From the IMG/VR virus record IMGVR_UViG_3300032254_000001, positions 224,001 to 288,000 of that record: a DNA stretch of 64,000 bases. One strand, given 5' to 3'. Under the pieces are notes generated by a model that was given only the letters and a program-made list of their open reading frames with translations, was not told the origin of the DNA and did no database searches. Position 1 is the first letter of the stretch. The number at the start of each line of letters is the position of its first letter. A program made the translations under genes and the position numbers. This DNA is from a virus. Lineage: Duplodnaviria; Caudoviricetes. Below are positions 32,405-57,995 of the stretch, in pieces.

Positions 32405-32711
32405 TGAGTTTGTCCCATATAGCTTCTTTCTCTAAGCGATCATGGAACTCAATCATTGCTGCTTTTCTTTCTTTCTTAAAAAGATCAAGTGCTATCTTGT
32501 GTGGGCAGTCCTCAGGGTACTCAGTTATGTTGTGTTCAGCTTCGCTTAAGCGACAAGAAACCCAAGTGTTGTCTGACTCGTAGTCCCTGCTGTGATCGCT
32601 TATGTGTAATGTTTCATCCCACTCGTAGTAATTTTTACATTCAAGTATATCTCTGCACATACTGTCATAATGTATTCTAAACATCTTTCCTCTGCTCTGC
32701 TGCAATTTCAC
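32391..32711 (-). CDS. Cys/His-containing WxxL-tagged protein
   Basis: ECK.Y.E.D..C..NI.EYPE.C.H; AIWDKL; paralogue of 33765..34031. Confidence 0.7.
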   Translation of the reverse strand: MKLQQSRGKMFRIHYDSMCRDILECKNYYEWDETLHISDHSRDYESDNTWVSCRLSEAEHNITEYPEDCPHKIALDLFKKERKAAMIEFHDRLEKEAIWDKLNAVE

Positions 32712-32937
32712 TAATTAATATATCAGCTAGTTCTTGTTCAACATCTATTCCGTGTAGGGACTCTAGGTCTTTAGCAACGTCAACAGTCCAACTAGCACGT
32801 AGCCTACGGGTCACAGGGCCAGTCTCCTTTAGGCGGTCCCAAACTTTTTCTTTCTCTCGTTGAATAGCTTCTTTCTGCTTCCGGATACCGTTGCGGATCT
32901 TTCGTTGGTTCACTTGTATTGCTGTCTCTTTCATCAA
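32677..32937 (-). CDS. WxxL-tagged small protein with major-capsid fragment
   Basis: KVWDRLK; TRRLRASWT..DLESLHGIDVEQE..EIAAE is 21/39 identical to gp23 residues 167-205. Confidence 0.8.
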   Translation of the reverse strand: MMKETAIQVNQRKIRNGIRKQKEAIQREKEKVWDRLKETGPVTRRLRASWTVDVAKDLESLHGIDVEQELADILISEIAAEQRKDV

Positions 32938-33166
32938 ACTTCCATTCTCCTAGTATATGTTTATTAAATTCTGTCATATCTTTAGTCAGACTGTCAATGT
33001 ATGCGTCTACTAAAGACCAATCGATCCCATACTTCTGGGGGAGTTGTGTTACCCCAGATAATTTCTTCCATATGGTCTCTTCTTCTTTTTGCAGCCGCTC
33101 TCTTTCTTTTCGCCTCTGCTCTTTTCTTTTTCCGCGGGTCCTGAAACGTTTCCGTCTTGAAGTCAA
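32804..33166 (-). CDS. Arg-rich WxxL-tagged protein
   Basis: TTG start with GGAGG SD; TIWKKL; N-terminus paralogous to the 33419 gene. Confidence 0.7.
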   Translation of the reverse strand: MTSRRKRFRTRGKRKEQRRKERERLQKEEETIWKKLSGVTQLPQKYGIDWSLVDAYIDSLTKDMTEFNKHILGEWKFDERDSNTSEPTKDPQRYPEAERSYSTRERKSLGPPKGDWPCDP

Positions 33167-33419
33167 AATGAAACCCTCCTACTGGTTCTATACCTGCTGT
33201 TTGTTCGCCCATTGGCTGTACACCAACTAAGTCGTCTGCAATCATTACAGGTGCTATGCGTCTCATTAACGGCATTAAAATAGCGCCAAGATCATCCCAA
33301 TCGTATTCAGGTGGTAGTGGCGGGCTAACATTTGTTAACTTGTTCCAAGTCTCTAACGACTCTTTCCTTAGTGCTTTACGCTTACCACGCTGCCTACGTC
33401 TGCGCCTGACACTAGTCAT
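32994..33419 (-). CDS. Arg-rich WxxL-tagged protein with Gol-like major-capsid fragment
   Basis: ETWNKL and EVWDRL tags; LGAILMPLMRRIAPVMIADDLVGVQPM is 14/27 identical to gp23 residues 57-83. Confidence 0.8.
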   Translation of the reverse strand: MTSVRRRRRQRGKRKALRKESLETWNKLTNVSPPLPPEYDWDDLGAILMPLMRRIAPVMIADDLVGVQPMGEQTAGIEPVGGFHFDFKTETFQDPRKKKRAEAKRKRAAAKRRRDHMEEIIWGNTTPPEVWDRLVFSRRIH

Positions 33420-33765
33420 CGTCGGTAATATCCTTAGGTTTAGGTTTCATTATTATAACATTATCATGCTCGTCGGACTTCTCGTATTTGTTCTTAATAC
33501 TATCTAACTTTTCTTCAAATGTGTCGCAGGCCCACTCGTTTAATTGATTGTATAAGTCAGCAGCACCAGGCGTCACAGTGTGTCTAAATGTTTCTGTTTT
33601 TGAATCATAATTGCTGATTATACGTTCTATTCGTATTACCCGCTTCCTGCGCCACCAAGACTTGAAATGAATAGTAAAAACATCATAAACCTTTGTGCCA
33701 ATCTTATGCTCCATTGTGTGCTCGAAGTATTCGATTTTATCAAAAAATTCTTTAGGTAGTATCAT
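33412..33765 (-). CDS. Hypothetical protein (no tag)
   Basis: 117-aa coupled ORF. Confidence 0.65.
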   Translation of the reverse strand: MILPKEFFDKIEYFEHTMEHKIGTKVYDVFTIHFKSWWRRKRVIRIERIISNYDSKTETFRHTVTPGAADLYNQLNEWACDTFEEKLDSIKNKYEKSDEHDNVIIMKPKPKDITDDD

Positions 33766-34031
33766 TATAGGACCTGTATATGTACTGGATCACGTAAAAG
33801 TGATTTTACTGTTCTATGGGGTTGATTCAATTTCTTCCACATTATATCTTGTTGCTTTGCTTTATCTTTCGCAATGGTAATATCTTCAAGGTGCAAACAA
33901 CCTTCTGGATATTTAATAATGTTAATCGTCACACCCATTACAATACAGGAATGACATTTACCAACCTGCATATCAAACTCTCTGTGGTACTTGCATTCCT
34001 TTGATTTACAAAATTCATTAAAGTTATACAT
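33765..34031 (-). CDS. Cys/His-containing WxxL-tagged protein
   Basis: ECKYH.EFD..C..NI.KYPEGC.H; IMWKKL. Confidence 0.7.
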   Translation of the reverse strand: MYNFNEFCKSKECKYHREFDMQVGKCHSCIVMGVTINIIKYPEGCLHLEDITIAKDKAKQQDIMWKKLNQPHRTVKSLLRDPVHIQVL

Positions 34032-35055
34032 GCTCTACAACTACTTTTACATTTGGAAACGGTGTTATAAACTGCCCACATGCAGACTGAATTTCAACTC
34101 CGGTTGAAATTTGTATCTTTAAATTATTGTGAAACTTTGCAAACTGCACAATAATTTCCTTAAAGCGATCGCTTTCTTCCATTTCGTTAGCATCACATCT
34201 GTTATAGCGTAGTACTCTGAACTCGTAGTCTTCTAGATTCCACTTAGTGATAAAATCAAACAATGCTTGCACTTCTTCTTCGCTATCGTTAACACCATCC
34301 ATAAACATATGATGGAATATTAAATTATGTTTGTTGTTGTCTGCGTACTTTAACAGCTTCGGCATTGCTTCTTCCAATGGCATAGCTCCAGGAATAATTT
34401 GATCCCTAGTCTCTTGTACTGCACTGTGCAACGAATAAAACAATCTAAATGGACTGCGCTGTATGTAATTGCCCATTGATGATTGTGCTTCACTATGCAC
34501 AACAACCTTGTTATTTGGATTAGTTCCAAATGATTTTAGGTCTTCATTGAGCTCGTGAAATATGTCAATCCAATCATCGTTTCTAATTTTAGGTAGCACT
34601 GTTGAAAGATCAACACCATCTAAGCCTGCTGCGTAGTTGTTATCTGTTACGTAGTTTAACACATCGTTGGTTGCTCTGTACACCCCTGCTGGGTTAAGAA
34701 TTGCTTCGCCCATGCCCATCCAGCATACTTTCATGTATCTGCTTGCTATGCTTGCATCGTGTTGCACTGCATGATCAATTGCATCAATAAGATTTGATTG
34801 CACTGTAGTAATTGGCAGCTTCTTGTAAGGCATTTCTTTCATTGTTAAGTAACAGAAGTCACACTGCATCGGGCATCCGCCGCTAATCGATGCGAACACT
34901 GAATACTTATTTCTGTTAATAGGATTCATTTCCAGTACACCAGTTACTGGATTTCTAATTGTGTCGCAGCTTGAAACAGTTTTTATTGCAGTTTCAGACG
35001 TGTCGCTATGCACATACTTTGTTACTAGTCCGTCATCTGATTCAAAAACTTCCAT
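34024..35055 (-). CDS. RlmN/Cfr-like radical SAM protein
   Basis: GCPMQCDFC, MGMGE, SLHSA, EI.SACGQ motifs. Confidence 0.85.
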   Translation of the reverse strand: MEVFESDDGLVTKYVHSDTSETAIKTVSSCDTIRNPVTGVLEMNPINRNKYSVFASISGGCPMQCDFCYLTMKEMPYKKLPITTVQSNLIDAIDHAVQHDASIASRYMKVCWMGMGEAILNPAGVYRATNDVLNYVTDNNYAAGLDGVDLSTVLPKIRNDDWIDIFHELNEDLKSFGTNPNNKVVVHSEAQSSMGNYIQRSPFRLFYSLHSAVQETRDQIIPGAMPLEEAMPKLLKYADNNKHNLIFHHMFMDGVNDSEEEVQALFDFITKWNLEDYEFRVLRYNRCDANEMEESDRFKEIIVQFAKFHNNLKIQISTGVEIQSACGQFITPFPNVKVVVEHV

Positions 35056-35290
35056 TGGTATTCCTCTTCAATGAGTCCGGGTGAATTATTTCGTTACGAA
35101 CTCTGTTGTTTTCTCTTTCCCTTGCTGCTTCCATCTCTGCTAGTATCTCGTCTTGGATGCGACGAACTGCTTCTTCCATACGTCCTACCATGTGTCGTAG
35201 CATCTCTTCCCATTCCGTGTCATGGATAGAAGGTTCTTCCTGCAGACCGTTCTTTAAGCGATCCCAGACTTCTTCTTGCTCTGTGTTCAT
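35042..35290 (-). CDS. WxxL-tagged small protein
   Basis: EEVWDRLKNG. Confidence 0.7.
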   Translation of the reverse strand: MNTEQEEVWDRLKNGLQEEPSIHDTEWEEMLRHMVGRMEEAVRRIQDEILAEMEAARERENNRVRNEIIHPDSLKRNTNGSF

Positions 35291-35472
35291 GCCGTTGTGT
35301 CCGATACTATTGTTATAGCCTTGTCAGCTCGAAGCACCTGTGTTGACCAATATATCGATCGATACATAAGTGGTTCAAATTTAACCTTAGGCTCTGGAAC
35401 ATGCTTAAGCTTTTCCCACACCAGTTCTTTATCACTGGGTTCTGCAGATGTTACTTTCTTGACTTTTGCCAC
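35287..35472 (-). CDS. WxxL-tagged small protein
   Basis: ELVWEKLKHVPEPK, shared with the 36567 gene. Confidence 0.65.
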   Translation of the reverse strand: MAKVKKVTSAEPSDKELVWEKLKHVPEPKVKFEPLMYRSIYWSTQVLRADKAITIVSDTTA

Positions 35473-35671
35473 TAAATTTTAATGCGAAAATTATCGCATC
35501 CTCCTTATACTCAAACCACCAACGTGTGTTAGTGTAATGGTGATAAAAACATCCACCATCTTGTTGTTCGACACACCACTTGTGAGCTTCTTTAATACAG
35601 TCACGACATGGTGGTGGAACAACAAACCATAATTCATTACGATGTTCCTTAGGTGGATTACACCACTTCAC
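35432..35671 (-). CDS. Small 'W.FE..DA..F.LK' family protein
   Basis: KWC...WWFEYKEDAIIFALKF. Confidence 0.7.
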   Translation of the reverse strand: MKWCNPPKEHRNELWFVVPPPCRDCIKEAHKWCVEQQDGGCFYHHYTNTRWWFEYKEDAIIFALKFSGKSQESNICRTQ

Positions 35672-35919
35672 TCATCTTTACCTACTACCACATACTCGAC
35701 GCTAGATACGCCGTCACCTAAATCTTTGTGTACTAATTTAGTTTCCACCTTACCTCCTCGCATATCAGCGAACAGTTGCGATGCTTTTTTAAGTTCTTCT
35801 TCTGTGTTCTCTACTTCTTTCCAATTCGAAGCCTTGCTCAGCTTTTCCCACATTAATTCCTTATCGTCATCTTCTGTAGTCTTGCCAAGAAGTATTCTTT
35901 TAAAACGTTCTAAGTTCAT
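35668..35919 (-). CDS. WxxL-tagged small protein
   Basis: ELMWEKLS. Confidence 0.7.
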   Translation of the reverse strand: MNLERFKRILLGKTTEDDDKELMWEKLSKASNWKEVENTEEELKKASQLFADMRGGKVETKLVHKDLGDGVSSVEYVVVGKDE

Positions 35920-36143
35920 TTGTCGATTGTACTCTCAATATCGAAATACATTGTTTTACCAGCTCCGCGTCGTGCTGCTATTACAACCAATTCACCTTTG
36001 CCAACACCACCACACAATGCTCTACCTAATTGCTGTTGGTACCATGTTAGGCCGTTGCCATTAAATGGTGGTACATACTCTGTGGATAACTTTTCCCACA
36101 TTAGTTCCTGCTCAGCGGCTTTTGAGGATTTTGATTGTGACAT
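35916..36143 (-). CDS. WxxL-tagged protein with isolated P-loop (Walker A) fragment
   Basis: ELMWEKLS; GG...GELVVIAARRGAGKT. Confidence 0.75.
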   Translation of the reverse strand: MSQSKSSKAAEQELMWEKLSTEYVPPFNGNGLTWYQQQLGRALCGGVGKGELVVIAARRGAGKTMYFDIESTIDK

Positions 36144-36567
36144 TATTTGGATCCACCTCTTCTTTAGAAATACTTAGTATAGTGTCCATCATGCTCGGAT
36201 ATAATGAACTAATGTCATTATCAAACGTGCTACCCTTAGGCTGTGGAACATGTTTAAGCTTTTCCCAAACTTCTGCCTTTTCCTCTTCGATCTTCTGTAA
36301 TAAAATTTTAGCTTTAACACGGGTACCAAACACAGGACTTTTTGCAGCTTCCTGCAAGTCTGCTATCTCCATGCGGATCCGGTTGTCATGCTCCTCATCA
36401 GTATCAGTAATCATCCTAAGTCTAGCTTTTGCTCGTAGCCTAATGCCCATTGAATCATCCTTACTAAGGATTTTAAGATATTCCGGGCCATTGTTCATTA
36501 GCTCTATCTTCTCAGCTTCAGACATTGCCATTATTCTAATTTGGTCAAACAGATCAACTTCACTCAT
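36112..36567 (-). CDS. WxxL-tagged protein with DNA polymerase B motif-A fragment
   Basis: EVWEKLK; DISSLYPSMM. Confidence 0.75.
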   Translation of the reverse strand: MSEVDLFDQIRIMAMSEAEKIELMNNGPEYLKILSKDDSMGIRLRAKARLRMITDTDEEHDNRIRMEIADLQEAAKSPVFGTRVKAKILLQKIEEEKAEVWEKLKHVPQPKGSTFDNDISSLYPSMMDTILSISKEEVDPNNVTIKILKSR

Positions 36568-36797
36568 TTAAATTTTAATGCAAACAATGTTGCATCCTCT
36601 TCGTTTTCAAAATACCAATATGTTTCTCTAAATTCCACGTCCGCTTTATTTTCTTTATACCTGCGATAATATTGCCCTGATGAATTATGTCCTGTGCACC
36701 ATGATCCTTCCGCAGTATACGATCTAGATGCATGTCTAACTAATGTCACTTTATTCCACGGGTGGCCGTTAACATCGCCTATATCTTTATATTCCAC
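36564..36797 (-). CDS. Small 'W.FE..DA..F.LK' family protein
   Basis: WC..WYFENEEDATLFALKF. Confidence 0.7.
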   Translation of the reverse strand: MEYKDIGDVNGHPWNKVTLVRHASRSYTAEGSWCTGHNSSGQYYRRYKENKADVEFRETYWYFENEEDATLFALKFK

Positions 36798-36805
36798 AGT
36801 ACACC

Positions 36806-37198
36806 TTATTCATCAAACTTCTCATTTTTCAATTTATAAAATGTTTCAACGCTTTCTTCTGTGAACGGAACAAAGGTACTAGCCAATGCATCTTTGCCAG
36901 AAGTAAAATAAAATATCCAACCGCCCGGTACACGTTCAGCACAGGTATCGTCGTGTATATCTAAGCGATCATAATGTGGCATGGTATACAGTTGCCTGCG
37001 ATTCTTAGCATAGACCACTTCCCTTACTGCGGCTTCTTTAGCAGCCTCATCCATTTCTGCCCTGTGTTTCGCCATTATTTTGTCAATGCGATCACGGCGT
37101 TCTAATTCTTCACGTAGGCCTTTTGCCTTAGCTGCGTCTTTAGCTTCTTGCTCTTTCTTTTCTTTTAGTAGCTGCCGGTCTGCTTTACTTTTCCACAT
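36806..37198 (-). CDS. Hypothetical protein
   Basis: Start at MWKSK after GAGGAG; RVPGGWIF C-terminal motif. Confidence 0.65.
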   Translation of the reverse strand: MWKSKADRQLLKEKKEQEAKDAAKAKGLREELERRDRIDKIMAKHRAEMDEAAKEAAVREVVYAKNRRQLYTMPHYDRLDIHDDTCAERVPGGWIFYFTSGKDALASTFVPFTEESVETFYKLKNEKFDE

Positions 37199-37508
37199 CG
37201 TGGTACTCCTCGGGAGGAGCTGCAATTGCTTCTAAGTCGTATACCACTCGTTTAATGTACTGGAACTTTGATTCCGGATCATCGCATAATGCCATCCATG
37301 CTAATTCCTTATTAAACTTGAATTTAAGTGTGTTAGCTACGCCATTGGTATAGCGATTGATACGGCTAAGTTCAGCTTCGTGGTCACGTTTAACCCGAAG
37401 GAACTGCTTTTCGCGGTAGTTAATATGCTGGGCTTGGCCTTTAGCCTTGTCTTCCAGATCCTTTATTTGCTGTTTAAGATCCTTAATTATATCGCGTTTT
37501 GATGCCAT
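37185..37508 (-). CDS. Hypothetical coiled-coil protein; first gene of the tagged operon
   Basis: Directly after the promoter at 37541-37569. Confidence 0.65.
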   Translation of the reverse strand: MASKRDIIKDLKQQIKDLEDKAKGQAQHINYREKQFLRVKRDHEAELSRINRYTNGVANTLKFKFNKELAWMALCDDPESKFQYIKRVVYDLEAIAAPPEEYHDVEK

Positions 37509-37540
37509 AACTACCACTGAGGTTAACGAATTGTGTAGTA

Positions 37541-37569
37541 ATTATAGCAAGTTTTGGAGGGATGGTCAA
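37541..37569 (-). promoter_or_regulatory. Early sigma70 promoter TTGACC-17-TATAAT
   Basis: Heads the coupled operon containing the tagged genes. Confidence 0.8.
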
Positions 37570-37808
37570 TCAGTTTTGGTGTCATCGAGTGTAATGTTAA
37601 CGCTTAAATAGGGGAATTCGGTGTCATCTACGTACTCAACATCGTACGGCTTTTCAATTGTGCAATCGGTACTTAAAAAGGCATCTACTGCCGTCTGTTC
37701 CTCTATGGATAATACCTCATCCTGGAAAAGCCATATATCCATAACCGATTCGAATCCACCGTGCTTAATAAGAAGCAGTGTCATTAGGTGTTCCTGTTCT
37801 GGAGTCAT
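37566..37808 (-). CDS. Small 'L.(L/I)K(Y/H)G' family protein
   Basis: TLLLIKHGGFE..MDIWL; promoter TTGACA-17-TAACAT at 37856-37884. Confidence 0.65.
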   Translation of the reverse strand: MTPEQEHLMTLLLIKHGGFESVMDIWLFQDEVLSIEEQTAVDAFLSTDCTIEKPYDVEYVDDTEFPYLSVNITLDDTKTD

Positions 37809-37880
37809 AAGTCAGACCTTTATGGGCTTCTGTGTTTGACGCTTTACAAGCCGTTATGTTAACACACTATTTTGGTGTTG

Positions 37881-38033
37881 TCAATGGCTGTTCTTTATAT
37901 GCACGTCAAAACCTTCTTTTTCATGCTCGTAATATACAGGAGTATTGTTCAAAATCTTTGCTATTGAATGTGCAAACTCTCTGTCTTCTGTCATTAGTCG
38001 TACGAATGTTGCTTTAAGCTCTTCGTCACTCAT
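37881..38033 (-). CDS. Small hypothetical protein (50 aa)
   Basis: Not in track. MSDEELKATFVRLMTEDREFAHSIAKIL... Confidence 0.5.
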   Translation of the reverse strand: MSDEELKATFVRLMTEDREFAHSIAKILNNTPVYYEHEKEGFDVHIKNSH

Positions 38034-38247
38034 CTTCATTATCTGTATCCTTTGGATTATCGTATAGTTTGTTAAACTCTTTCTTTACATCTAAAACAAG
38101 ATTTGGTAATATTTTTATTGCATGTTCACCTAGTACTTCCTTCTGGGCATCACTGAACTGTTCTTTATCGTACAACCATATACAGAATGCGTTCTCTATA
38201 CTGCCGTACTTCAAAATTAAAAATGTTTTAACATCATCTTCACTCAT
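38026..38247 (-). CDS. Small 'LILKYG' family protein
   Basis: TFLILKYGSIENAFCIWL. Confidence 0.7.
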   Translation of the reverse strand: MSEDDVKTFLILKYGSIENAFCIWLYDKEQFSDAQKEVLGEHAIKILPNLVLDVKKEFNKLYDNPKDTDNEDE

Positions 38248-38447
38248 TTGCGTCTGGTCTCTGCAAAGAATATATTAATAGCATCGTGCAAGTGAGCGGG
38301 CATTTTATCGTGTGTATTGATCCACATATGGAATGCTTTGTCCAAATTGCCGTATTTTAATATTAAATATGATTCTATATTATCCATAGTTATCGGTCCC
38401 GGGTGATACGCTGTTCGCGTTACTAGCGTAACACACTCGTCTACCAA
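38244..38447 (-). CDS. Small 'LILKYG' family protein (true start probably MDNIES)
   Basis: SYLILKYGNLDKAFHMWI. Confidence 0.65.
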   Translation of the reverse strand: MVDECVTLVTRTAYHPGPITMDNIESYLILKYGNLDKAFHMWINTHDKMPAHLHDAINIFFAETRRK

Positions 38448-38465
38448 AAGTCAACCTCAATCTGC

Positions 38466-38678
38466 TCATTTTAAGTCATCTTTTAGTGTAACACTTACTG
38501 GATATTTAATACCATCTTTGGTATGCTCTAATATCATGTGTGCTAGTTCGGATATAGTAGGATCTGGGTCGTTCTTAAATACATCAAGATGCTTACCATA
38601 ACGTACCATTATGAACTTTTCTTCAAACGGTAAGGAGTAGTACTTGATGTGATCAAATACATTTGATTCATTTGCCAT
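38466..38678 (-). CDS. Small hypothetical protein
   Basis: FIMVRYG, weakly like the LILKYG family. Confidence 0.6.
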   Translation of the reverse strand: MANESNVFDHIKYYSLPFEEKFIMVRYGKHLDVFKNDPDPTISELAHMILEHTKDGIKYPVSVTLKDDLK

Positions 38679-38847
38679 TATCTTTATCTCTTTGATCTAA
38701 ATAATCGTTAAGTGCTTTTACTGCTTCCGTTAAGTTGTCCTTATTTCTATCAGTATTGTATTTCTGGATTATATCCAATTTTTGTTCCGTTGTTAGGTAT
38801 TCCTTATTAAGGTTTTCCCATGTTTCTTCTTCAGGTGTTTTAGCCAT
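38668..38847 (-). CDS. Small WxxL-like tagged protein (59 aa)
   Basis: Not in track. MAKTPEEETWENLNKEY...; follows the promoter at 38886-38914. Confidence 0.6.
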   Translation of the reverse strand: MAKTPEEETWENLNKEYLTTEQKLDIIQKYNTDRNKDNLTEAVKALNDYLDQRDKDNGK

Positions 38848-38885
38848 AATTCGTGCTTCTATCTTGAGGGCGCTTTACAGCACTT

Positions 38886-38958
38886 AGTATAACAATTTAA
38901 AATGCGTTTGTCAACCTTATCGTAATATTTGACTTATACCCATTTTGCATGTTACACT
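38886..38958. promoter_or_regulatory. Back-to-back sigma70 promoters
   Basis: Minus: TTGACA-17-TATACT (38914-38886). Plus: TTGACT-18-TACACT (38929-38958). Confidence 0.7.
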
Positions 38959-38962
38959 CATC

Positions 38963-39035
38963 CTACGAAAGCGTAGAGCAGTTACACGCTTTTGGCCCAC
39001 TAGGGCCATCGAGGACGAAGTACTCGAGTAACTGC
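38963..39035 (+). ncRNA. Structured 5' leader (hairpin plus three-way junction)
   Basis: CTACG/CGTAG; GCAGTTAC/GTAACTGC encloses TGGCCC/GGGCCA and TCGAG/CTCGA. Confidence 0.55.
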
Positions 39036-39053: not shown

Positions 39054-39284
39054 ATGAATGTAGTACCCGGAGCATCTATAACAGCTATTAAAGATTCGTA
39101 CTTTATGGTTGAAGCACGTACTCCTTTTGAGCGTGATGGCGAATTATATCCATGGTGTAAGAATCACGATAGCGAAGGATATTTCAATTATGCTAATCGC
39201 TACTCTAGTGGCGGTAACGTCCGACCACAGTTTTGGTTTGAGTTAGAAGCTGATGCTATGTTGTTTAAGTTGAAATTCGCATGA
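39054..39284 (+). CDS. Small 'W.FE..DA..F.LK' family protein
   Basis: WC...FWFELEADAMLFKLKF. Confidence 0.7.
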   Translation: MNVVPGASITAIKDSYFMVEARTPFERDGELYPWCKNHDSEGYFNYANRYSSGGNVRPQFWFELEADAMLFKLKFA

Positions 39285-39628
39285 GACTTATAATAGCTGG
39301 AAGCAGACACTTAACACTTGATGTAGAAGGCATACAGGCCTTTATTAACTATTTAGGTATTACAGATATAACCGAAGTAGTGTGTGGCATGGCGCCTGGT
39401 ATTGATGCTGCTGGAAAATTATGGGCAGAATCTAATAACATTCCAGTTGAGCCGTTTCCTGCAGAGTGGGAGACGTACGGCAAAGCTGCTGGGCATATAC
39501 GCAATAAGCAAATGGCAGACTACGGTGATGAACTACTAGTAATTTGGAACGGTAAGTCTCCGGGTTCTCGTAATATGAAGACCACAATGGAAAAATTGGG
39601 CAAAAAGGTACACGAAGGCACATTCTAA
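39281..39628 (+). CDS. SLOG-superfamily protein (DUF2493/YspA-like)
   Basis: IIAGSR, G.A.G.D, FPA.W..YGKAAG..RN.QM, W.G.S.G motifs. Confidence 0.8.
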   Translation: MRLIIAGSRHLTLDVEGIQAFINYLGITDITEVVCGMAPGIDAAGKLWAESNNIPVEPFPAEWETYGKAAGHIRNKQMADYGDELLVIWNGKSPGSRNMKTTMEKLGKKVHEGTF

Positions 39629-39810
39629 TGACAAACGATTACCCATACAAAGTTAGATTTAAATGGCGTTACGGTGAAATGCTAAAGGATCTTTCTGCAT
39701 GGTGTAATGAGAATTGCACCGGCGAATATCAGTATCAATACACTGCTTCAGTGTTTTGGTTTAAAGAGTCTAAGGATGCAATGATGTTTAAACTGGCTAA
39801 CAACTTATGA
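39628..39810 (+). CDS. Small 'W.F...DA..F.L' family protein
   Basis: WC...FWFKESKDAMMFKL. Confidence 0.65.
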   Translation: MTNDYPYKVRFKWRYGEMLKDLSAWCNENCTGEYQYQYTASVFWFKESKDAMMFKLANNL

Positions 39811-40279: not shown

Positions 40280-40307
40280 AAAAAGCACTCTGTAAAGAGT
40301 GCTTTTT
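40280..40307. terminator. Bidirectional intrinsic terminator after gp23
   Basis: AAAAAGCACTCT-gtaa-AGAGTGCTTTTT. Confidence 0.85.
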
Positions 40308-40346: not shown

Positions 40347-41537
40347 TTAGCTAAAGCTTAAATTGCTGACTGCGACTTCCCCTAAATAATCTCCAGCATT
40401 ACCGAAAGATGATGCAGTATTCGTAAGCTCAATATAACCATAACGTGTCATAAAGCTTACAACTGGCTCAAATGTACTTGGATCAAGTACAACACCTGAA
40501 CTCATTAAAGGAACGTATGGGCAGTAGAACGCTGGTGCGTCTGCTTCGCTTGAACCTTTATAACCAACAAGTACTGGAGTAGTGTCGTTAGCATAGCTAT
40601 CAACGTAAACTTTCATTGCTGAGTTAAGAGTACCAACAAACTTAGTGTTTGTAGGAGCTTCAAATGTACCTTCAGTGGTACGTGCAAATGCAGAGGTAGT
40701 AGCTGACTGTAGTACAGTTAAAGAAGCTGGTGAAACAACTGCATAGTTACCAGCGCCACGACGTGTACGTGTAGCGATAAGGTTAGCTGTACGGTTGATA
40801 AGAACTGCTAATGCAGCATGTTCATCACCTACGAATGTAGCAGTACCTGAAACAAGTGACTGATCGTATGTGAATTCTGTGCTTGCTAATGAACGTAAAG
40901 ATAAAAGAATCTCTTGGTCAATTTCAGCAGTAATTTCTTGTGCTAAAGCAGCCATGATTTCAGCTTCAACATCAATGCCGTGCATTGACTGAGCATCTTG
41001 AGCAGCTTCAAAAGTCCAACGTGCTTGTAACTTACGTGTCTTAGCTTCAACAGCTTGCTTTAAGATCTGAACGGAAATGTTACGACCGCCTTCGCCTTCT
41101 AAGTTTGCTGTCTGTGCTGCACGGTAGTCAGCTTGTGTAGCGCCAACACCAGCTGAGTATGCTTGCGCAATCTTGAATGGTGATAGTGCTTCTTCGCCTG
41201 CTGCTGTACTAGTACTAGCTGCACTTGAATCAGTCATAGTAGAACCGTAACGTACACGAAGTGTATGAATCTGGCTTACAGGACCTGACATTGGCTGTAC
41301 ACCTACAAGTTCATTTGCAATGACTGTAGGCATAACACGTCGAATAACTGGTAAAATAACACGGTTTAATGTTGCAACGTTACCAGCGGCAGTAGCGCCA
41401 CTTGATGCAGATTCTGCTAAGTGGTTACGAGTGTTTTCCAAAATTACGCTCATTGTAGAACGTTTGGTACCGTCTAGACCTTCAAGCAATGCTTCTTTGG
41501 TCTCACCCCAACGGTTTTCTAATAGTGCTTGTGACAT
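40347..41537 (-). CDS. gp23: Major capsid protein
   Basis: IRR..P..IA..LVGVQPM, KTRKL.ARWT.E.AQD, EIDQEI, FYCPYVPL, MTRYG motifs. Confidence 0.98.
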   Translation of the reverse strand: MSQALLENRWGETKEALLEGLDGTKRSTMSVILENTRNHLAESASSGATAAGNVATLNRVILPVIRRVMPTVIANELVGVQPMSGPVSQIHTLRVRYGSTMTDSSAASTSTAAGEEALSPFKIAQAYSAGVGATQADYRAAQTANLEGEGGRNISVQILKQAVEAKTRKLQARWTFEAAQDAQSMHGIDVEAEIMAALAQEITAEIDQEILLSLRSLASTEFTYDQSLVSGTATFVGDEHAALAVLINRTANLIATRTRRGAGNYAVVSPASLTVLQSATTSAFARTTEGTFEAPTNTKFVGTLNSAMKVYVDSYANDTTPVLVGYKGSSEADAPAFYCPYVPLMSSGVVLDPSTFEPVVSFMTRYGYIELTNTASSFGNAGDYLGEVAVSNLSFS

Positions 41538-52296: not shown

Positions 52297-54099
52297 TTAT
52301 TTTTCGGTGTAATCTTTATTAAGCCACGACGTCACTTCTTCTATACAAGTGTTAGGGTGGCTGTCTAATATAAATTCTATTGTTTTAATAACATCTGCAC
52401 ACGGTGTTCCGTTGCCTGTCCAACTATCTCTGCTTCTGCTTAGTGGTGTATCAAGTCTGTCAAAGTTAATTAAAGATGTTTTAAACGGTACTAAGTTATC
52501 TTTGAATGCTCGTGTGCATTGTTTGCTGGCATGTTCTAGAGCTGCTTTACTAACACGATAACGTTCAAATGATGGGTCTGGCGCAACTATATCCTTAAGA
52601 CCTGTGCTGCCTATGTTTATAATATGCCCCTGCTTATTTGCTGCTTTCCATGCATCGTATACAGCAATTAACAAGTTGACTTGTGCGAAGTTACTATGCG
52701 CTTCGCCTGCAGGACCATCAAATGCATTATTAATGAATACATCGTAATTAAGTGATTCTTGCACTATACGATCTATGTCGTATGGGTTAGTAATGTCTGC
52801 TTGCATGTCGGAATCTTCAGAGCGAGAAACGTTTACGCCTCTGAAGTGATTAATTAGTTCTAACCCTAATCCTCTATTTCCGCCTGTGATTAAATATTTG
52901 TTGCCCTGTGGTTCCAATTGATCCCATACCTTGTAAAATTCTTTACCACAAGTTAAAGCACATTCAAATAAACGTCCTTCTCCTAGTGGCTTGTTAAAAC
53001 TGTCTGTGACTTCTGTCCAGAACGGCTGTTTCATTATGTCAGCTAGTGTGTTGTGCTGTATACTTAATGTATTAAATGCATCATGCCTATTAAACAGATC
53101 CCGTATTTGATTTTCACCATTAGGTAAGAATGCCATATCGCTAGCACCAGGGAGTATATCCCTGTCATGGAAGCGAGCATCGTATAAATTATGATTGAAA
53201 AAGTTGCACGGCATAACAAGCCCATTGGCTGTTACTAATAATTTGCTTTTCTGGTTCTCACCATTGCCGTGGTGCGTACATAATGCATCGCATGTAATTG
53301 GTGTGCTACTAAAATACTTATGTAGATCATCATTATACTTGTCTTTAAGCTTTGGTAAATGTACCATGCTCTTATTTCGGTGGTCAAGCTCAGCAGGGTA
53401 TTCGATGTTGTATTCAACGTTGCCTGCTTTATCTTCTTTAGGCCATTGCTTAAGCTCACTGAAGTTGTTATATTCTAGGAATCTACCTGTAGAACGTTGA
53501 TTAAAAGATTCGAAGCCTATTAATGCTGCAAGCATACTAGCTTCTGCTACTTGGTGTTCGTTGTGCTTAAACACAATGAAATTCCATGCAGCTTTACCAC
53601 CTGCACGAATAAACGCTTCTGCATTTGTTATAATCTTATCGAAATCTGTATTACAGCGATACAAGTGATTTGTATCTTTAAGCCCATCTATGTTAAATTC
53701 TACTTTACCGTGTTCGCCAATGATCTCTGCAAGTTCTGCCCACCATTCGGTTTTACGTGCGCCACCATTTGTGTGTATTAAGATCCACAATGTGGGGTTT
53801 TTAGCACGAAAATCACGTAAAATATCTAAGAACTCTGGGTGTACAATTGGATCACCGTACCCTCCGCAGAAGAATATCTGGCGTAAATTAGCACAGATCT
53901 CTTTAGTAAAAGCTGTGTCAATGCATTCACGTGACAAGTGTTCTTTAACGATATGTGGGTTTTCTTTGCCACCATTTAAGTTCCTTGGGCACTGCGGACA
54001 CGCCGCATTGCAGAAATTAGTAATCTCTAGCTGGAACTCATCTACATTGTCTAGTTTAAATTTCAGGGAGGTCACCATCGTCAAAGAAGTCTTTAGCAC
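52297..54099 (-). CDS. Radical SAM domain fused to a short-chain dehydrogenase/reductase
   Basis: CNAACPQC, F.GG.GDP, TNG; C-terminal ITGGNRGLG, NNA, YRVSK. Confidence 0.85.
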   Translation of the reverse strand: MLKTSLTMVTSLKFKLDNVDEFQLEITNFCNAACPQCPRNLNGGKENPHIVKEHLSRECIDTAFTKEICANLRQIFFCGGYGDPIVHPEFLDILRDFRAKNPTLWILIHTNGGARKTEWWAELAEIIGEHGKVEFNIDGLKDTNHLYRCNTDFDKIITNAEAFIRAGGKAAWNFIVFKHNEHQVAEASMLAALIGFESFNQRSTGRFLEYNNFSELKQWPKEDKAGNVEYNIEYPAELDHRNKSMVHLPKLKDKYNDDLHKYFSSTPITCDALCTHHGNGENQKSKLLVTANGLVMPCNFFNHNLYDARFHDRDILPGASDMAFLPNGENQIRDLFNRHDAFNTLSIQHNTLADIMKQPFWTEVTDSFNKPLGEGRLFECALTCGKEFYKVWDQLEPQGNKYLITGGNRGLGLELINHFRGVNVSRSEDSDMQADITNPYDIDRIVQESLNYDVFINNAFDGPAGEAHSNFAQVNLLIAVYDAWKAANKQGHIINIGSTGLKDIVAPDPSFERYRVSKAALEHASKQCTRAFKDNLVPFKTSLINFDRLDTPLSRSRDSWTGNGTPCADVIKTIEFILDSHPNTCIEEVTSWLNKDYTEK

Positions 54100-54580
54100 T
54101 GTTTAGCACGTCTTTACTTGTCTTGAATACAGTACCATCAAGATTAGGCCCGTTCTGCCTTGACTGTATCAGCCAATCGATAGCAGGGTAGAATATTTGT
54201 AGTTTCCACTGTCCGTTAAAGCCTAGGTACAAGTTAGGGGTAATAGATGCAGGATTCTCATCTGAGTTAAAATCGTATATTGGCCAAAACACACCGCTGT
54301 TAAGCTCTTCTAATGTAAGCTCGACATCGTCTAGCTTTATAGATTTAATGTATACGTGCTTATCTGCAATAACATTACCGATAGCATCGTATTCGTGATC
54401 GTGTATTGTTTTACCAAAGTGTGTAATAATTAAGTAGTGTTCGCCACTAACTAAATTAATGTCTGCTTCAATGTGATCAGGACAATCACCCTCACACAAT
54501 ACATCGTAGTCGCCTACTTGTATTTTAATTTTTGGGTTGCCGAGCTTACGCTCAACTGCAAAATCGATTTCAATTTTCAA
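54056..54580 (-). CDS. Hypothetical protein in the radical SAM operon
   Basis: 174 aa, coupled. Confidence 0.7.
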   Translation of the reverse strand: MKIEIDFAVERKLGNPKIKIQVGDYDVLCEGDCPDHIEADINLVSGEHYLIITHFGKTIHDHEYDAIGNVIADKHVYIKSIKLDDVELTLEELNSGVFWPIYDFNSDENPASITPNLYLGFNGQWKLQIFYPAIDWLIQSRQNGPNLDGTVFKTSKDVLNSAKDFFDDGDLPEI

Positions 54581-56091
54581 TGTATAACTCCGACTAGTTT
54601 ATCTAGTTGTGTAAGGCGCTTCTTGTATTGATCCATTAGTATCCTTAACTGGTCGTCGCCCTTCCAGAATGTATATCCTAAATCAACTGCTAATTCCTGT
54701 GCTTCGATTCTACGCTTAATGCGTTCTTTGTACGTTAGTGTAGGATTGCCTAAACAAATCCAATCTGGGCCGTGTGGGTGATTTCCATTTTTACCAATGA
54801 TATTCATCTTTTGGTGTTCTTCCCACAGCGGAGTGCCTTCTTCGATAGTTAATGTAGTGCCTAAGTTAACACCAATGATAGTGCCATCCGCTACGTACTT
54901 CTGATATCGCTTAAGCATGTTTAATGTATCTTCAAAGTCTTCACGTGTTTCTGTTGGCCATCCGACGATAATAAGGAAATAAATCGCAATGCGATGTTTA
55001 CTAAACATTTCCATAGTGTAGTCAAGGTCTTCGTTAGTGAATCCCTTTTTCATATCTTCTCTAACTTTATCGCTTCCAGTTTCGACACCTACTACCATAG
55101 TCTCGGCACCTGCCCTAGCCATCATTTCGTAATCTTCGTCTTTGAATTTACTAGCTGATCTAATAATGTAGTGGCTACTGTAGTTTAAGAATCGTTCTGG
55201 TAAGTTATTTTGTTCGTAGTACTCAACAAGTAACTTGTTAAACACTCTAAAATCTTTAAGGCTGCCATTGCATAACGCATCGTGGAAAAAGAAATCCTCG
55301 ACATCGTATTGATCGTAGTAATGAATCATTTCATCAAACAATTGCTGACCTGATTTAAATCTAAAGCCGCCTTGCATAAGTGGAATGTCGCAGAACTTAC
55401 AACGTCTGATACATCCACGTGATGTTTCAATAGGTAATACACCTTTATTGAAACCGCTGAAATATTTAGAAACGGGAACATCGTCGAAGTTCATAAAATT
55501 ATGTTCGGCTACATTACTGTACGGAGCAAGTGTATTGCTATCAATACCTTGTGCATCGAAGTTGCCGGCTACTATATGCTTTATAGTAGTTTCAGCTTCG
55601 CCACGCACCCAATGGGCTATAAGCCCTTTGTCTTTAAGTACTTGCATGTACGGAACTTCACTTGAATAGCTGCCGTGTTCTTCACGTTTTAATCCTTGCC
55701 CACCTATTATAACAGGAATGCCTTCTTCTTTTATCAACTTTAAGAAATCTCCAAGGAACTTATGACTTTGCCATGTAAATGCGCTAATCATTATGTACGT
55801 TGGGTTATGTGCTTTTATTTTATCAATCCACTGCGTCATCCACTCGGAGTAGCTAGCAGTTTCTTCATCAGTCAAAGCATTTAAGTCGTCAAAGAAGTAC
55901 TCGTCAACTTTCCAATATGTGTTATCGCCGTATGTTTTTCTAAACTCTACAGCAAAGTCTAAGTTCATATCGTATACTTGTGACTCTTGTCCTTCAGCTT
56001 TTAATAAACTCTTAATGATCGCAGGAGCAGCTTGCGGACGTACTGCCGCAAAGCGAGGCACTGATAAAATTACAGCATATACCTCTTTCAC
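54577..56091 (-). CDS. Cobalamin-binding (class B) radical SAM protein
   Basis: N-terminal B12-binding-like domain; IETSRGC.RRCKFC; GVETGS..VR.DM.KG. Confidence 0.85.
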   Translation of the reverse strand: MKEVYAVILSVPRFAAVRPQAAPAIIKSLLKAEGQESQVYDMNLDFAVEFRKTYGDNTYWKVDEYFFDDLNALTDEETASYSEWMTQWIDKIKAHNPTYIMISAFTWQSHKFLGDFLKLIKEEGIPVIIGGQGLKREEHGSYSSEVPYMQVLKDKGLIAHWVRGEAETTIKHIVAGNFDAQGIDSNTLAPYSNVAEHNFMNFDDVPVSKYFSGFNKGVLPIETSRGCIRRCKFCDIPLMQGGFRFKSGQQLFDEMIHYYDQYDVEDFFFHDALCNGSLKDFRVFNKLLVEYYEQNNLPERFLNYSSHYIIRSASKFKDEDYEMMARAGAETMVVGVETGSDKVREDMKKGFTNEDLDYTMEMFSKHRIAIYFLIIVGWPTETREDFEDTLNMLKRYQKYVADGTIIGVNLGTTLTIEEGTPLWEEHQKMNIIGKNGNHPHGPDWICLGNPTLTYKERIKRRIEAQELAVDLGYTFWKGDDQLRILMDQYKKRLTQLDKLVGVIH

Positions 56092-57995
56092 TCTACTGCA
56101 CCCTCGTAGTTCGTGAAGCCACCTTCTTTAACCACCTTCATAGTATTGTTTACGCGACTAATTAATTCGTCGCGATGTGAAACAAGCCACACACTCTTTC
56201 CACGCTCTCGGGCCATGCCCTTCATGATTTTAATTGCGGCTTCAACTCCATTAGAGTCTAGGCCGTTGTCGACAAGCTCATCCACAAACAATAAGTTTAT
56301 ATGGTTATATAGGCTTTCCCAAACGTCCCGGAAGGCCCAGCTTAATGATAATATGAGTCTGTTGCGTTCACCGCGAGACAAGTTGTCGAAGTCTAATTCT
56401 CGTCCCATGTCTGTAATTTCTACAGACAAATCGGACATAAAGCGTACCAGGTGAGGAAGACCAATTTCACGTAGGTAGTGTGTGAGTCGATTATTTAAAT
56501 AAGCTAAATTCTGCTCAATAATCTTTTTACGTATGAAGCTGTCTTTGCTTGTTAACAGCTTTAATAGGAATGCTTGATGTTCTTGTAAATCAACTAGTCT
56601 GTTCATTTCATCGTAGTCAACATCCTGCATGCCTTTGTCTTTCATATCATTTATTTGATCAATGTACGGATCTTCATCAGCTAATGCTGTTTCTAACTGT
56701 GATGATAACGTTTCAAGTGAACTCTTGTGTCCATGTGCTTCGTCGATCGTCTTATAAAATGTTGTATTGCCTTTGTATCGCTCAGGACTAAATGTACGAG
56801 GCTCAACCTTCATACCTTGTACTTCTGGCGGAGAGCCTAGTTCAGCAAGTGTTAACTTATGCTCTTCTATACGACCCTCATTTAGTATCAACTGTTCTGA
56901 ACATTCTAATAGTTCTTTTTCTTTAGCTGCAATATTTTCTTCTTGCTTTGAATCGTGTAATTCCTGACCGCATGAATGACACTTGTGATCTGCTAATAAG
57001 TCAATATCTTTCTGGATTGACTGCGAACGTCTTTCTTGTGTTGTGCTATCGCTTGTAATCTGTTTAATCCAGCGATTGCACTCTAATACAGCTGAATTAA
57101 ACTTATCAACGGCAGCTTTATCTTTGTCTGATTGTAGCTTTAGTTCAGCATTGAACTTGTCTACTTCGGCTTGTCCCTTAGCATTTACTTTATCAGTTTC
57201 GACACGCTTGTCGGCATTATTTTTGTGTTTGGTAATCTCATCTTCGATGTCAAGTTCCATTAACTTTTCAATAGCAGCAACATGGTCGCCGACAGTTTCA
57301 TCCTTCTTACGTTGCCACATACGCTGTCTACGCTCAAGCCCTTCGATCTGCTCTTCGATGTGTTCGTTAGCTTTGATAACTGCACTTAAGCGGAACTCTT
57401 CTTCTTTAATTTGGTCTTTAGCTGTTTTATTAATTGCTTTAAGTGCTTCTGCCTTCTCAGTAAGTACTGTAATACCAAGCAATTCTTCAATGATGTTCTT
57501 TTGTTCACCTGCCTTCATTGACAAGAACGGTGTTGTATATGTGTTTAATGCTATTGCATGTTTAAACATGTCGTGGCTAATGCCTAGTAGACTCGCAATC
57601 TCTTTCTGAGTCTCACGACCATCACCTTGCGCTTCATCATCTGCTTTTTGTTCTTTATTATCTTTATAGAACTTTAATACATTTGGTTTACGTCCACGCT
57701 CAATTCTGTATTGAGTTTGATCGATGTCAAATTCAACACTAACAAGCATGTTCGCTGCATTTGTTTTGTTAATAAGATTATTAACTTTAATGTCTGACAA
57801 TGCGCTACCGTATAGTCCATAGCTGAGCGCATTTATTAATGTGGTTTTACCTGTACCGTTCCTGGAACCATTGCTGCCTAAGTCGAGGTTCTCGCCGAGG
57901 ACTAGGGTTAAGTCGTCGCGGTTAAAATCGACAGCCTGTGTGGCATTGCCGATTGACATGAAATTTTTTACGGTTAAATTCTTTATTCTGATCAT
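56088..57995 (-). CDS. gp46: Recombination endonuclease ATPase subunit (Rad50/SbcC-like)
   Basis: Walker A GTGKTT, zinc hook CHSC, signature LSRGE, Walker B LLFVDE. Confidence 0.95.
   Translation of the reverse strand: MIRIKNLTVKNFMSIGNATQAVDFNRDDLTLVLGENLDLGSNGSRNGTGKTTLINALSYGLYGSALSDIKVNNLINKTNAANMLVSVEFDIDQTQYRIERGRKPNVLKFYKDNKEQKADDEAQGDGRETQKEIASLLGISHDMFKHAIALNTYTTPFLSMKAGEQKNIIEELLGITVLTEKAEALKAINKTAKDQIKEEEFRLSAVIKANEHIEEQIEGLERRQRMWQRKKDETVGDHVAAIEKLMELDIEDEITKHKNNADKRVETDKVNAKGQAEVDKFNAELKLQSDKDKAAVDKFNSAVLECNRWIKQITSDSTTQERRSQSIQKDIDLLADHKCHSCGQELHDSKQEENIAAKEKELLECSEQLILNEGRIEEHKLTLAELGSPPEVQGMKVEPRTFSPERYKGNTTFYKTIDEAHGHKSSLETLSSQLETALADEDPYIDQINDMKDKGMQDVDYDEMNRLVDLQEHQAFLLKLLTSKDSFIRKKIIEQNLAYLNNRLTHYLREIGLPHLVRFMSDLSVEITDMGRELDFDNLSRGERNRLILSLSWAFRDVWESLYNHINLLFVDELVDNGLDSNGVEAAIKIMKGMARERGKSVWLVSHRDELISRVNNTMKVVKEGGFTNYEGAVE

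Follow-up and report, generated by a model that had tools for sequence, protein, structure and literature searches.

The 75-residue protein P0001, encoded on the minus strand, is very probably a four-part, non-enzymatic mini-protein from a genuine gene that is conserved and belongs to a T4-like jumbo phage of 344 kb. Its N-terminal helix (the tag), short and amphipathic and present also in the products of about a dozen nearby mini-genes, is joined by a proline-rich linker to a long-diverged copy of the first strand and Walker A loop of the phage's own SF4 replicative helicase, after which the chain ends in a short tail. The window, the 64,000-nucleotide stretch of DNA analysed here, covers bases 224001-288000 of an IMG/VR virus record that is 344,483 bp long and has direct terminal repeats. 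Among its products are a T4-type portal, major capsid protein and tail sheath, and by capsid protein the closest cultured phages (63-67% identity) are the jumbo phages Sinorhizobium Phosso, Vibrio 2.275.O and Pseudomonas PA5oct. One microbial-mat metagenome run, probably its source, contains the DNA of the window within a 177-kb contig covered to ~400x, and identical short contigs are present in one run of a second study. Between the prohead-protease-like and portal genes lies the gene of a 255-residue, extremely acidic protein with tandem M-G-M-E-P-E-M-G repeats (43313-44080, minus strand), possibly a scaffold or core component.

Gene structure of P0001

The features of the gene and of its two neighbours, with the evidence for each in brackets, are as follows.

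36112-36567, minus strand: upstream partner gene, 151 residues, the C-terminal third of which is a tagged mini-protein with DNA-polymerase-B motif A (core profile, synteny)
36154-36159, minus strand: Shine-Dalgarno-like GAGGTG, 10 nt 5' of the P0001 ATG (read from the sequence)
35916-36143, minus strand: gene of the 75-residue tagged mini-protein P0001, stop codon included (ORF list and translation; ~20 homologues; core dN/dS)
36081-36110, minus strand: N-terminal tag QELMWEKLST, residues 12-21, predicted helix (motif count; AlphaFold2 helix of low confidence)
35934-36047, minus strand: helicase-derived core, residues 33-70 (hhalign and six-frame profile scan)
35952-35975, minus strand: Walker A, AxxxxGKT, residues 57-64 (read directly from the sequence)
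35668-35919, minus strand: downstream tagged mini-gene, 83 residues, with an ATGA overlap and without an ATPase remainder or ATPase motifs

A sequence-only reading of this locus had described an isolated Walker A fragment, of DnaB/gp41 or terminase type, on a tagged protein. The 22 residues that it quoted are found exactly in the translation of 35952-36017 (minus strand), where they form residues 43-64 of P0001, and its further details hold as well: LTWYQ stands before the motif, the stop codon falls 11 residues past GKT, and no hhhhD/E Walker B follows. The start of P0001 overlaps the upstream 151-residue ORF by 32 nt, out of frame, while its stop codon and the ATG of the next gene overlap as ATGA.

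Conservation and selection

Exhaustive HMMER searching over 1.8 billion representatives recovered four small homologues of 63-79 residues (E 1e-9 to 5e-5), and a profile of these first matches extended the family to 20 proteins of 60-119 residues from several JGI, ENA and Logan metagenomes, 31-54% identical to P0001 and similar to it in length and build. In the family alignments (A2 and A3) a strongly conserved N-terminus ending in K-E-L-M-W-K-K-L-S-T leads into a proline-containing linker; an aromatic pair then precedes Q-Q (W/Y-x-Q-Q) and is followed by L-G-R-x-L-R, and the conserved part closes with G-E-h-x-V-h-A-A-x4-G-K-S/T-M before a short variable tail. GK[ST] is present in 18 of the 20 members and lost in two, so that the motif, on whose conservation the sequence-only reading had staked its case, is a conserved one. 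Two database proteins from outside the window (P0005 and P0006, 440-456 residues) contain 7-8 tandem RecA/Rad51-type Walker A segments and are probably oddities of repetition or assembly that have no relation to the phage family.

Searches with P0001 alone recovered only itself (word-indexed protein search, IMG/VR pattern scan and metagenome pattern scan), and tblastn against cultured phages gave only non-significant DnaB matches. Neither Pfam nor PHROG has an entry for the family itself, and full-text searching of the literature turned up no account of proteins of this kind. Twenty-nine relatives whose capsid protein is 80-85% identical, each with 5 kb or more of sequence downstream of the capsid gene, lack the family there; it is therefore an accessory gene of one sub-clade, not a core gene. 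Likewise, 80 loci with an 80-89% identical capsid protein contained neither a family member nor a tag cluster.

Within the core, dN/dS is 0.11-0.36 at a dS of 0.6-1.4 (Nei-Gojobori, three close homologues: L087, L093 and L096). The first 21 codons have a lower dS, as expected, because the first ~11 of them co-encode the conserved C-terminus of the upstream gene in the other frame. These values bear on the possibility, which we judge very unlikely, that P0001 is a selectively neutral leftover: a piece of a helicase gene, captured or in decay within a hyperplastic region, or else a functionless, chance P-loop-like string. The locus does lie amid many small, fast-changing ORFs, its single-sequence database matches are weak, the pattern scans gave no close homologue, and the loss of GK[ST] in two members points the same way. 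However, the ~20 members share one length and build at 31-54% identity to P0001, the core is under the constraint given above at a dS of up to 1.4, and the place beside the polymerase mini-gene is conserved; the start codon, the Shine-Dalgarno sequence and the coupling to the next gene are all intact, and no remnants of the remaining helicase gene lie nearby. Judged on neutrality, parental remnants and want of homologues, none of which was found, a neutral remnant is largely excluded.

Origin of the Walker A core

As a single sequence P0001 matches Pfam DnaB_C (PF03796) at E 0.0089 (15.9 bits, below the cut-off of 27) and, among the PHROG families, 19 (DnaB-like helicase, E 4.8e-5), 239 (DNA primase/helicase, 0.0034) and 38 (terminase large subunit, 0.012). 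Three of five tested members match the PHROG DnaB-like and primase/helicase families, and one of the five matches PHROG 38. When the 17-member core alignment with the tag removed (A3) was compared by hhalign with an alignment of 21 helicases of the phage group that are 67-89% identical (A4), 37 columns were aligned at a probability of 96.3% (E 1.5e-9), pairing P0001 residues 33-70 with helicase residues 157-193. The phage's own helicase as a single sequence (P0024, 458 residues, gp41/DnaB-type) gave 95.3% (E 2.3e-8), whereas the like-for-like single-sequence control with its own TerL gave 0.18% (E 0.33) and left the TerL Walker A unaligned. A search of the genome's 1895 ORFs with A3 placed the helicase first (E 2.2e-6) and a UvsX/RecA-like protein second (7.7e-5), with nothing else below 0.5 and TerL unlisted at E < 20 in hmmsearch. 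The same two proteins ranked first and second among the 18 long Walker-A ORFs of the genome and were the only ones above 60% probability. Among PDB sequences the best match was the T7 gp4 helicase (E 0.006), and a designed 'phosphate-loop protein' (6c2u) came fifth (E 0.037). The matched segment 157-193 contains the longest invariant run across the 21 helicases (28 residues, L166-L193), and in P0001, as in SF4 helicases, Walker A is preceded by a G-G-x-x-x-G-x-L strand (strand and Walker A together, residues 45-64). On these profile comparisons the core is derived from an SF4 helicase, with a RecA-type recombinase a close second, and a terminase origin is rejected; of the two origins offered by the sequence-only reading, the DnaB/gp41 type (RecA-fold, SF4) is thus the one borne out.

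The other, a terminase-ATPase-like Q-motif/P-loop serving as a bait for Avs-type TerL sensors, is extremely unlikely. The spacing from Y/F-Q-Q to Walker A superficially resembles that of the terminase and DEAD-box Q-motif/motif I, and the PHROG 38 match of one member (E 0.012) would agree with such an origin, but the alignment with the phage's own TerL falls off the Walker A, BLASTP returned no match, and no terminase appears in the PDB list. Avs sensors recognise folded ATPase/nuclease domains of terminase, which a 40-residue piece could not reproduce. The proposed link to Avs sensors is unsupported because the terminase origin on which it depended is not supported. A DEAD-box Q-motif/motif I origin was considered for the alike spacing in short members and set aside, as SF2 helicases are missing from all four rankings (Pfam, PHROG, PDB and own genome).

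Over 25 core residues P0001 shares 36% identity with the helicase. Its DNA and that of the matching helicase segment agree at 51% of nucleotides, and codons are identical at 3 of the 9 identical residues; the core is therefore an old copy, maintained at the protein level. A DNA-level decoy or recombination substrate was rejected, given only 51% nucleotide identity to the helicase gene. A second alignment, of the C-terminal half with helicase residues 367-398, was not significant (E 9.4).

The rest of the ATPase is missing from the locus. A scan of all six frames of 33000-39000 with the 21-helicase profile, stops read through, gave a sole match at 35943-36035 (minus strand, profile positions 160-190), and Pfam DnaB_C, run over six frames of the whole genome, found the full helicase and, at the P0001 locus, only profile positions 12-35. 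An ATPase remainder in an adjacent frame, which the earlier reading had named as the mark of a simple pseudogene, is thus absent within +/-3 kb. P0001 has no Walker B, H3/H4 motifs, arginine finger or any other part of the RecA fold, and its 75 residues leave room for one strand and a short helix, too few for an active ATPase, as had been supposed. Because only one strand and the Walker A loop are retained, P0001 as translated cannot hydrolyse NTP in the manner of a helicase. An AlphaFold2 model calculated with the family alignment is of low confidence (pLDDT 62.6); it has helices at the tag (residues 8-19) and over W-Y-Q-Q-Q-L-G-R-A-L (residues 29-44), and the P-loop is flanked by two short strands that form a hairpin. 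P0001 probably needs a partner or oligomerisation to fold.

Organization of the row of tagged mini-genes

The tag motif E-x-[VMIT]-W-[EDKN]-[KR]-L occurs in 13 copies within 31.8-38.85 kb, against ~15 loose matches in the other 337 kb of the genome. Its copies differ by synonymous codons and are positioned 4-20 residues from the N-terminus, sometimes 45-98. P0001, a small protein encoded downstream of the capsid gene and carrying the motif at residues 13-19, belongs to this row. Tag-like K-V-W-K-K-L, E-V-W-N-K-L and T-I-W-D-R-L are found in three distant ORFs (genome coordinates 53866-54111, 92936-93262 and 199128-199694, all minus strand), and the tag may accordingly extend beyond the row.

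Parent proteins are detectable for 5-6 of the 13 tagged genes and for none of the rest, so that the label 'library of pieces' may not suit the row as a whole. By phmmer an 86-residue ORF (32677-32937) matches residues 166-207 of the phage's own capsid protein (E 1.4e-8), a 141-residue ORF (32994-33419) matches capsid residues 57-89 (E 1.9e-5), and a 131-residue ORF of the row matches the C-terminal part of a 343-residue gp55-like protein (E 5.4e-8); a pattern scan with the gp55 mini-protein gave no match. The mini-protein encoded directly upstream of P0001 has as the best non-self match of its core profile a 918-residue ORF, presumably the DNA polymerase, at motif A (D-x-x-S-L-Y-P-S, E 0.0072).

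This polymerase-motif-A mini-gene lies directly upstream of, and overlaps, the Walker-A mini-gene in five lineages (the window, L087, L088, L093 and L096), which are all of the checked lineages that have an upstream mini-gene. L093 is syntenic with the window over ~13 kb and includes one gene with a Gp23 Pfam match, and the row is syntenic in L089 also. In each of the five the Walker-A mini-gene starts 32-62 nt within the end of the polymerase mini-gene, in the other frame (36112-36143 in the window). The same bases encode M-S-Q-S-K-S-L-K at the N-terminus of the Walker-A mini-protein and V-T-I-K-V-L-K-N-R at the C-terminus of the polymerase mini-protein, both conserved termini sharing bases because of the out-of-frame overlap. 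In the homologue P0012 a V-L-N-G-R-R-like stretch is in frame with S-Q-S-K-S-L-K.

Two further sets of paralogues are found in the window. Four genes of ~60-80 residues end in W-W/Y-F-E-x-x-E-D-A-x-x-F-A-L-K-F, and such genes occur also in the rows of L087, L088 and L093; their positions in the window are:

35432-35671, minus strand: W-W/Y-F-E paralogue
36564-36797, minus strand: W-W/Y-F-E paralogue
39054-39284, plus strand: W-W/Y-F-E paralogue
39628-39810, plus strand: W-W/Y-F-E paralogue

The second set consists of three adjacent genes (67-80 residues, 37566-38447, minus strand) sharing L-I-L-K-Y-G-x-h-x-x-A-F-x-x-W, several copies of which are found in L089-L093.

The row also encodes a 343-residue radical-SAM protein (34024-35055, minus strand; Pfam Radical_SAM E 2.4e-5; PHROG 27142) with CxxxCxxC and a C-terminal A-C-G-Q-F, which by its motifs we take to resemble RlmN/Cfr-type RNA methyltransferases. 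A 48%-identical homologue is encoded in an unrelated 33-kb viral contig (L003) at a locus that is not syntenic. The idea that the tagged proteins are RiPP leader peptides for this enzyme was dropped, their cores being long, charged and not rich in Cys, Ser or Thr and the enzyme presumably RlmN/Cfr-like. Elsewhere in the window (52297-57995, minus strand) two more radical-SAM enzymes, of which one has a B12-binding domain, are encoded in a cluster beside an SbcC/SMC-like ATPase.

Expression signals

Two signals delimit the row on the side of the head genes.

38886-38914, minus strand: sigma-70-like promoter, TTGACA-17-TATACT with TG, a short way 5' of the gene that opens the row (consensus match)
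40280-40307, minus strand: terminator with a 12-bp stem, after the capsid gene and between the late head operon and the row

The two best sigma-70-like sites of the region (38914-38886 and 37569-37541; 11 of 12 matches each, with TG) are on the coding strand a short way upstream of row genes. Both are consensus matches, and promoter-like sites are no commoner in the region than in shuffled sequence. The T4 late-promoter word TATAAATA is absent from the row and occurs at two sites directly upstream of structural genes elsewhere in the window. This pattern of motifs suggests early expression of the row.

The same signals weigh on a reading in which the tag is an address, either for capsid targeting as in T4 internal proteins or for degradation, and the C-terminal piece is an injected payload or a proteolytically timed regulator. 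The row adjoins the head module (capsid gene 40347-41537, portal gene 44453-46156), and one N-terminal motif is common to many different small proteins, as such cargo would have it. We nevertheless regard this as quite improbable: between the late head operon and the row stands a strong terminator, the promoter motifs are sigma-70-like and not of T4-late type, and the distance of the motif from the N-terminus varies from 4-20 to, in some genes, 45-98 residues. The T4 prohead protease cleaves at the pattern L/I-x-E, and the tag does not contain it.

Proposed function

We favour, tentatively and at rather less than even confidence, the reading that P0001 is a peptide mimic or competitor, in effect a decoy, of the NTP-site segment of the helicase. 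The polymerase-motif-A and Walker-A mini-proteins would be made together from the early-type promoters, and the common handle would present the strand-loop of the helicase NTP site, which could then compete for whatever normally engages that segment of the helicase. What engages it might be a defence sensor or modifying enzyme of the host, or else a component of the replisome of the phage or of a rival phage, whether a partner of the helicase or an adjacent subunit. The tag may give every member of the row a shared property, for example docking, oligomerisation or removal at a set time. In preferring this reading we counted the context as favouring a design that displays pieces of core proteins, namely the mini-proteins of the row with capsid, gp55 and polymerase pieces and the preserved order of polymerase and Walker-A mini-genes.

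Strict epitope mimicry is poorly fitted by the family alignment. Positions that are invariant in the helicases vary in the family, four residues inside the P-loop among them, and the part that is kept, a hydrophobic strand with AxxxxGK[ST], is a generic phosphate-binding signature; the two sit uneasily with a copied epitope. Most members are also basic (pI 9-10.3 in 13 of 17), and generic signature and basic pI together fit ligand binding at least as well as mimicry.

P0001 might instead be an autonomous minimal P-loop protein, in which a tag-oligomerised strand, P-loop and short helix bind NTPs, signalling nucleotides, polyphosphate or single-stranded nucleic acid and so act as a small sponge or as a DNA/RNA binder. 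We consider this unlikely, while placing it second in order of preference after the peptide mimic or competitor. Beyond the drift of helicase-specific positions and the basic character of most members, the conserved positions amount to a generic Walker A (hydrophobic strand and A/S-x4-G-K-S/T) together with two arginines and the upstream Gln pair, and the designed protein 6c2u is among the first five PDB matches. Designed beta-(P-loop)-alpha prototypes of 40-55 residues bind NTPs and ssDNA in vitro as oligomers (Vyas et al., bioRxiv 10.1101/2020.07.30.228619). The translationally coupled upstream mini-protein moreover contains another nucleotide-binding loop, polymerase motif A. On the other hand, the helix after the P-loop has only ~11 residues and is unconserved across the family, the monomer model is poorly defined at the pLDDT given above, and the capsid and sigma-factor pieces have no nucleotide-binding role, so that phosphate binding would leave the row unexplained.

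The preferred reading, that of a mimic or competitor, can be widened to the row, in a form that we hold to be rather doubtful. The row would then be a phage-encoded 'self-mimic' set in which the most invariant loops of core phage proteins (the P-loop of the helicase, motif A of the polymerase, two segments of the capsid protein and a domain of the sigma factor), all on one handle and made early, would occupy host sensors or modifying enzymes directed at just those unalterable sites; in a variant, P0001 would act as a minimal P-loop protein of natural origin and take up nucleotide ligands. Were the row composed of mimics of invariant sites, it would embody a new counter-defence principle, in which parts that cannot mutate are shielded by a surplus of their own copies in the cell. 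Each mini-protein would in that case mark a site in a core protein that some host system reads or attacks, and the genome could be read as a map of defence targets, here the NTP site of the helicase. If P0001 is a phosphate binder in its own right, the laboratory P-loop prototypes that model the origin of NTPases would have in it their first counterpart from nature. Whatever its function, a 40-residue fragment of a catalytic core can persist under selection as a separate gene.

Comparison with known systems

P0001 resembles the SF4 helicases (T4 gp41, DnaB, T7 gp4 and the phage's own P0024) from TGW...D...L-x-G-G-F-x-x-G-E-L through the first strand and Walker A. It differs in having ~37 of the ~460 positions and no N-terminal domain, in its foreign tag, and in a P-loop interior that is free to vary. 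With the designed P-loop prototypes (6c2u) it shares a single strand, P-loop and helix within a few dozen residues; those, however, are laboratory constructs with a full helix and demonstrated ligand binding, whereas P0001 represents a natural family with a truncated, variable tail that is known from sequence. T4 gp17-type TerL, a known trigger of Avs1-3, similarly has a Gln motif ~20-27 residues N-terminal to its Walker A, which ends in GKT, but the mini-protein lacks profile similarity to TerL, a Walker B and the nuclease domain, and the TerL fold cannot be present.

The T4 internal proteins are likewise diverse small proteins with a common short N-terminal motif, encoded in a variable region of a T4-like genome, although the motif of the row differs from theirs in sequence and position and the signals in the row are of early and not late type. 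MicroProteins and truncated dominant-negative paralogues usually retain a whole interaction domain. P0001 is comparable to microProteins as a small protein that retains one piece of a multimeric protein and could interfere with it, but unlike them it retains one strand and loop of the catalytic core only. In the recognition of the Gol peptide of T4 gp23 by the Lit protease, a short conserved stretch of a core phage protein is read by a host defence. Gol lies within the full capsid protein and triggers the defence, whereas the mini-protein is the product of a separate gene and helicase-derived; the likeness is that Gol and Lit provide a precedent for recognition of a conserved stretch and that the row of P0001 likewise contains pieces of the capsid protein.
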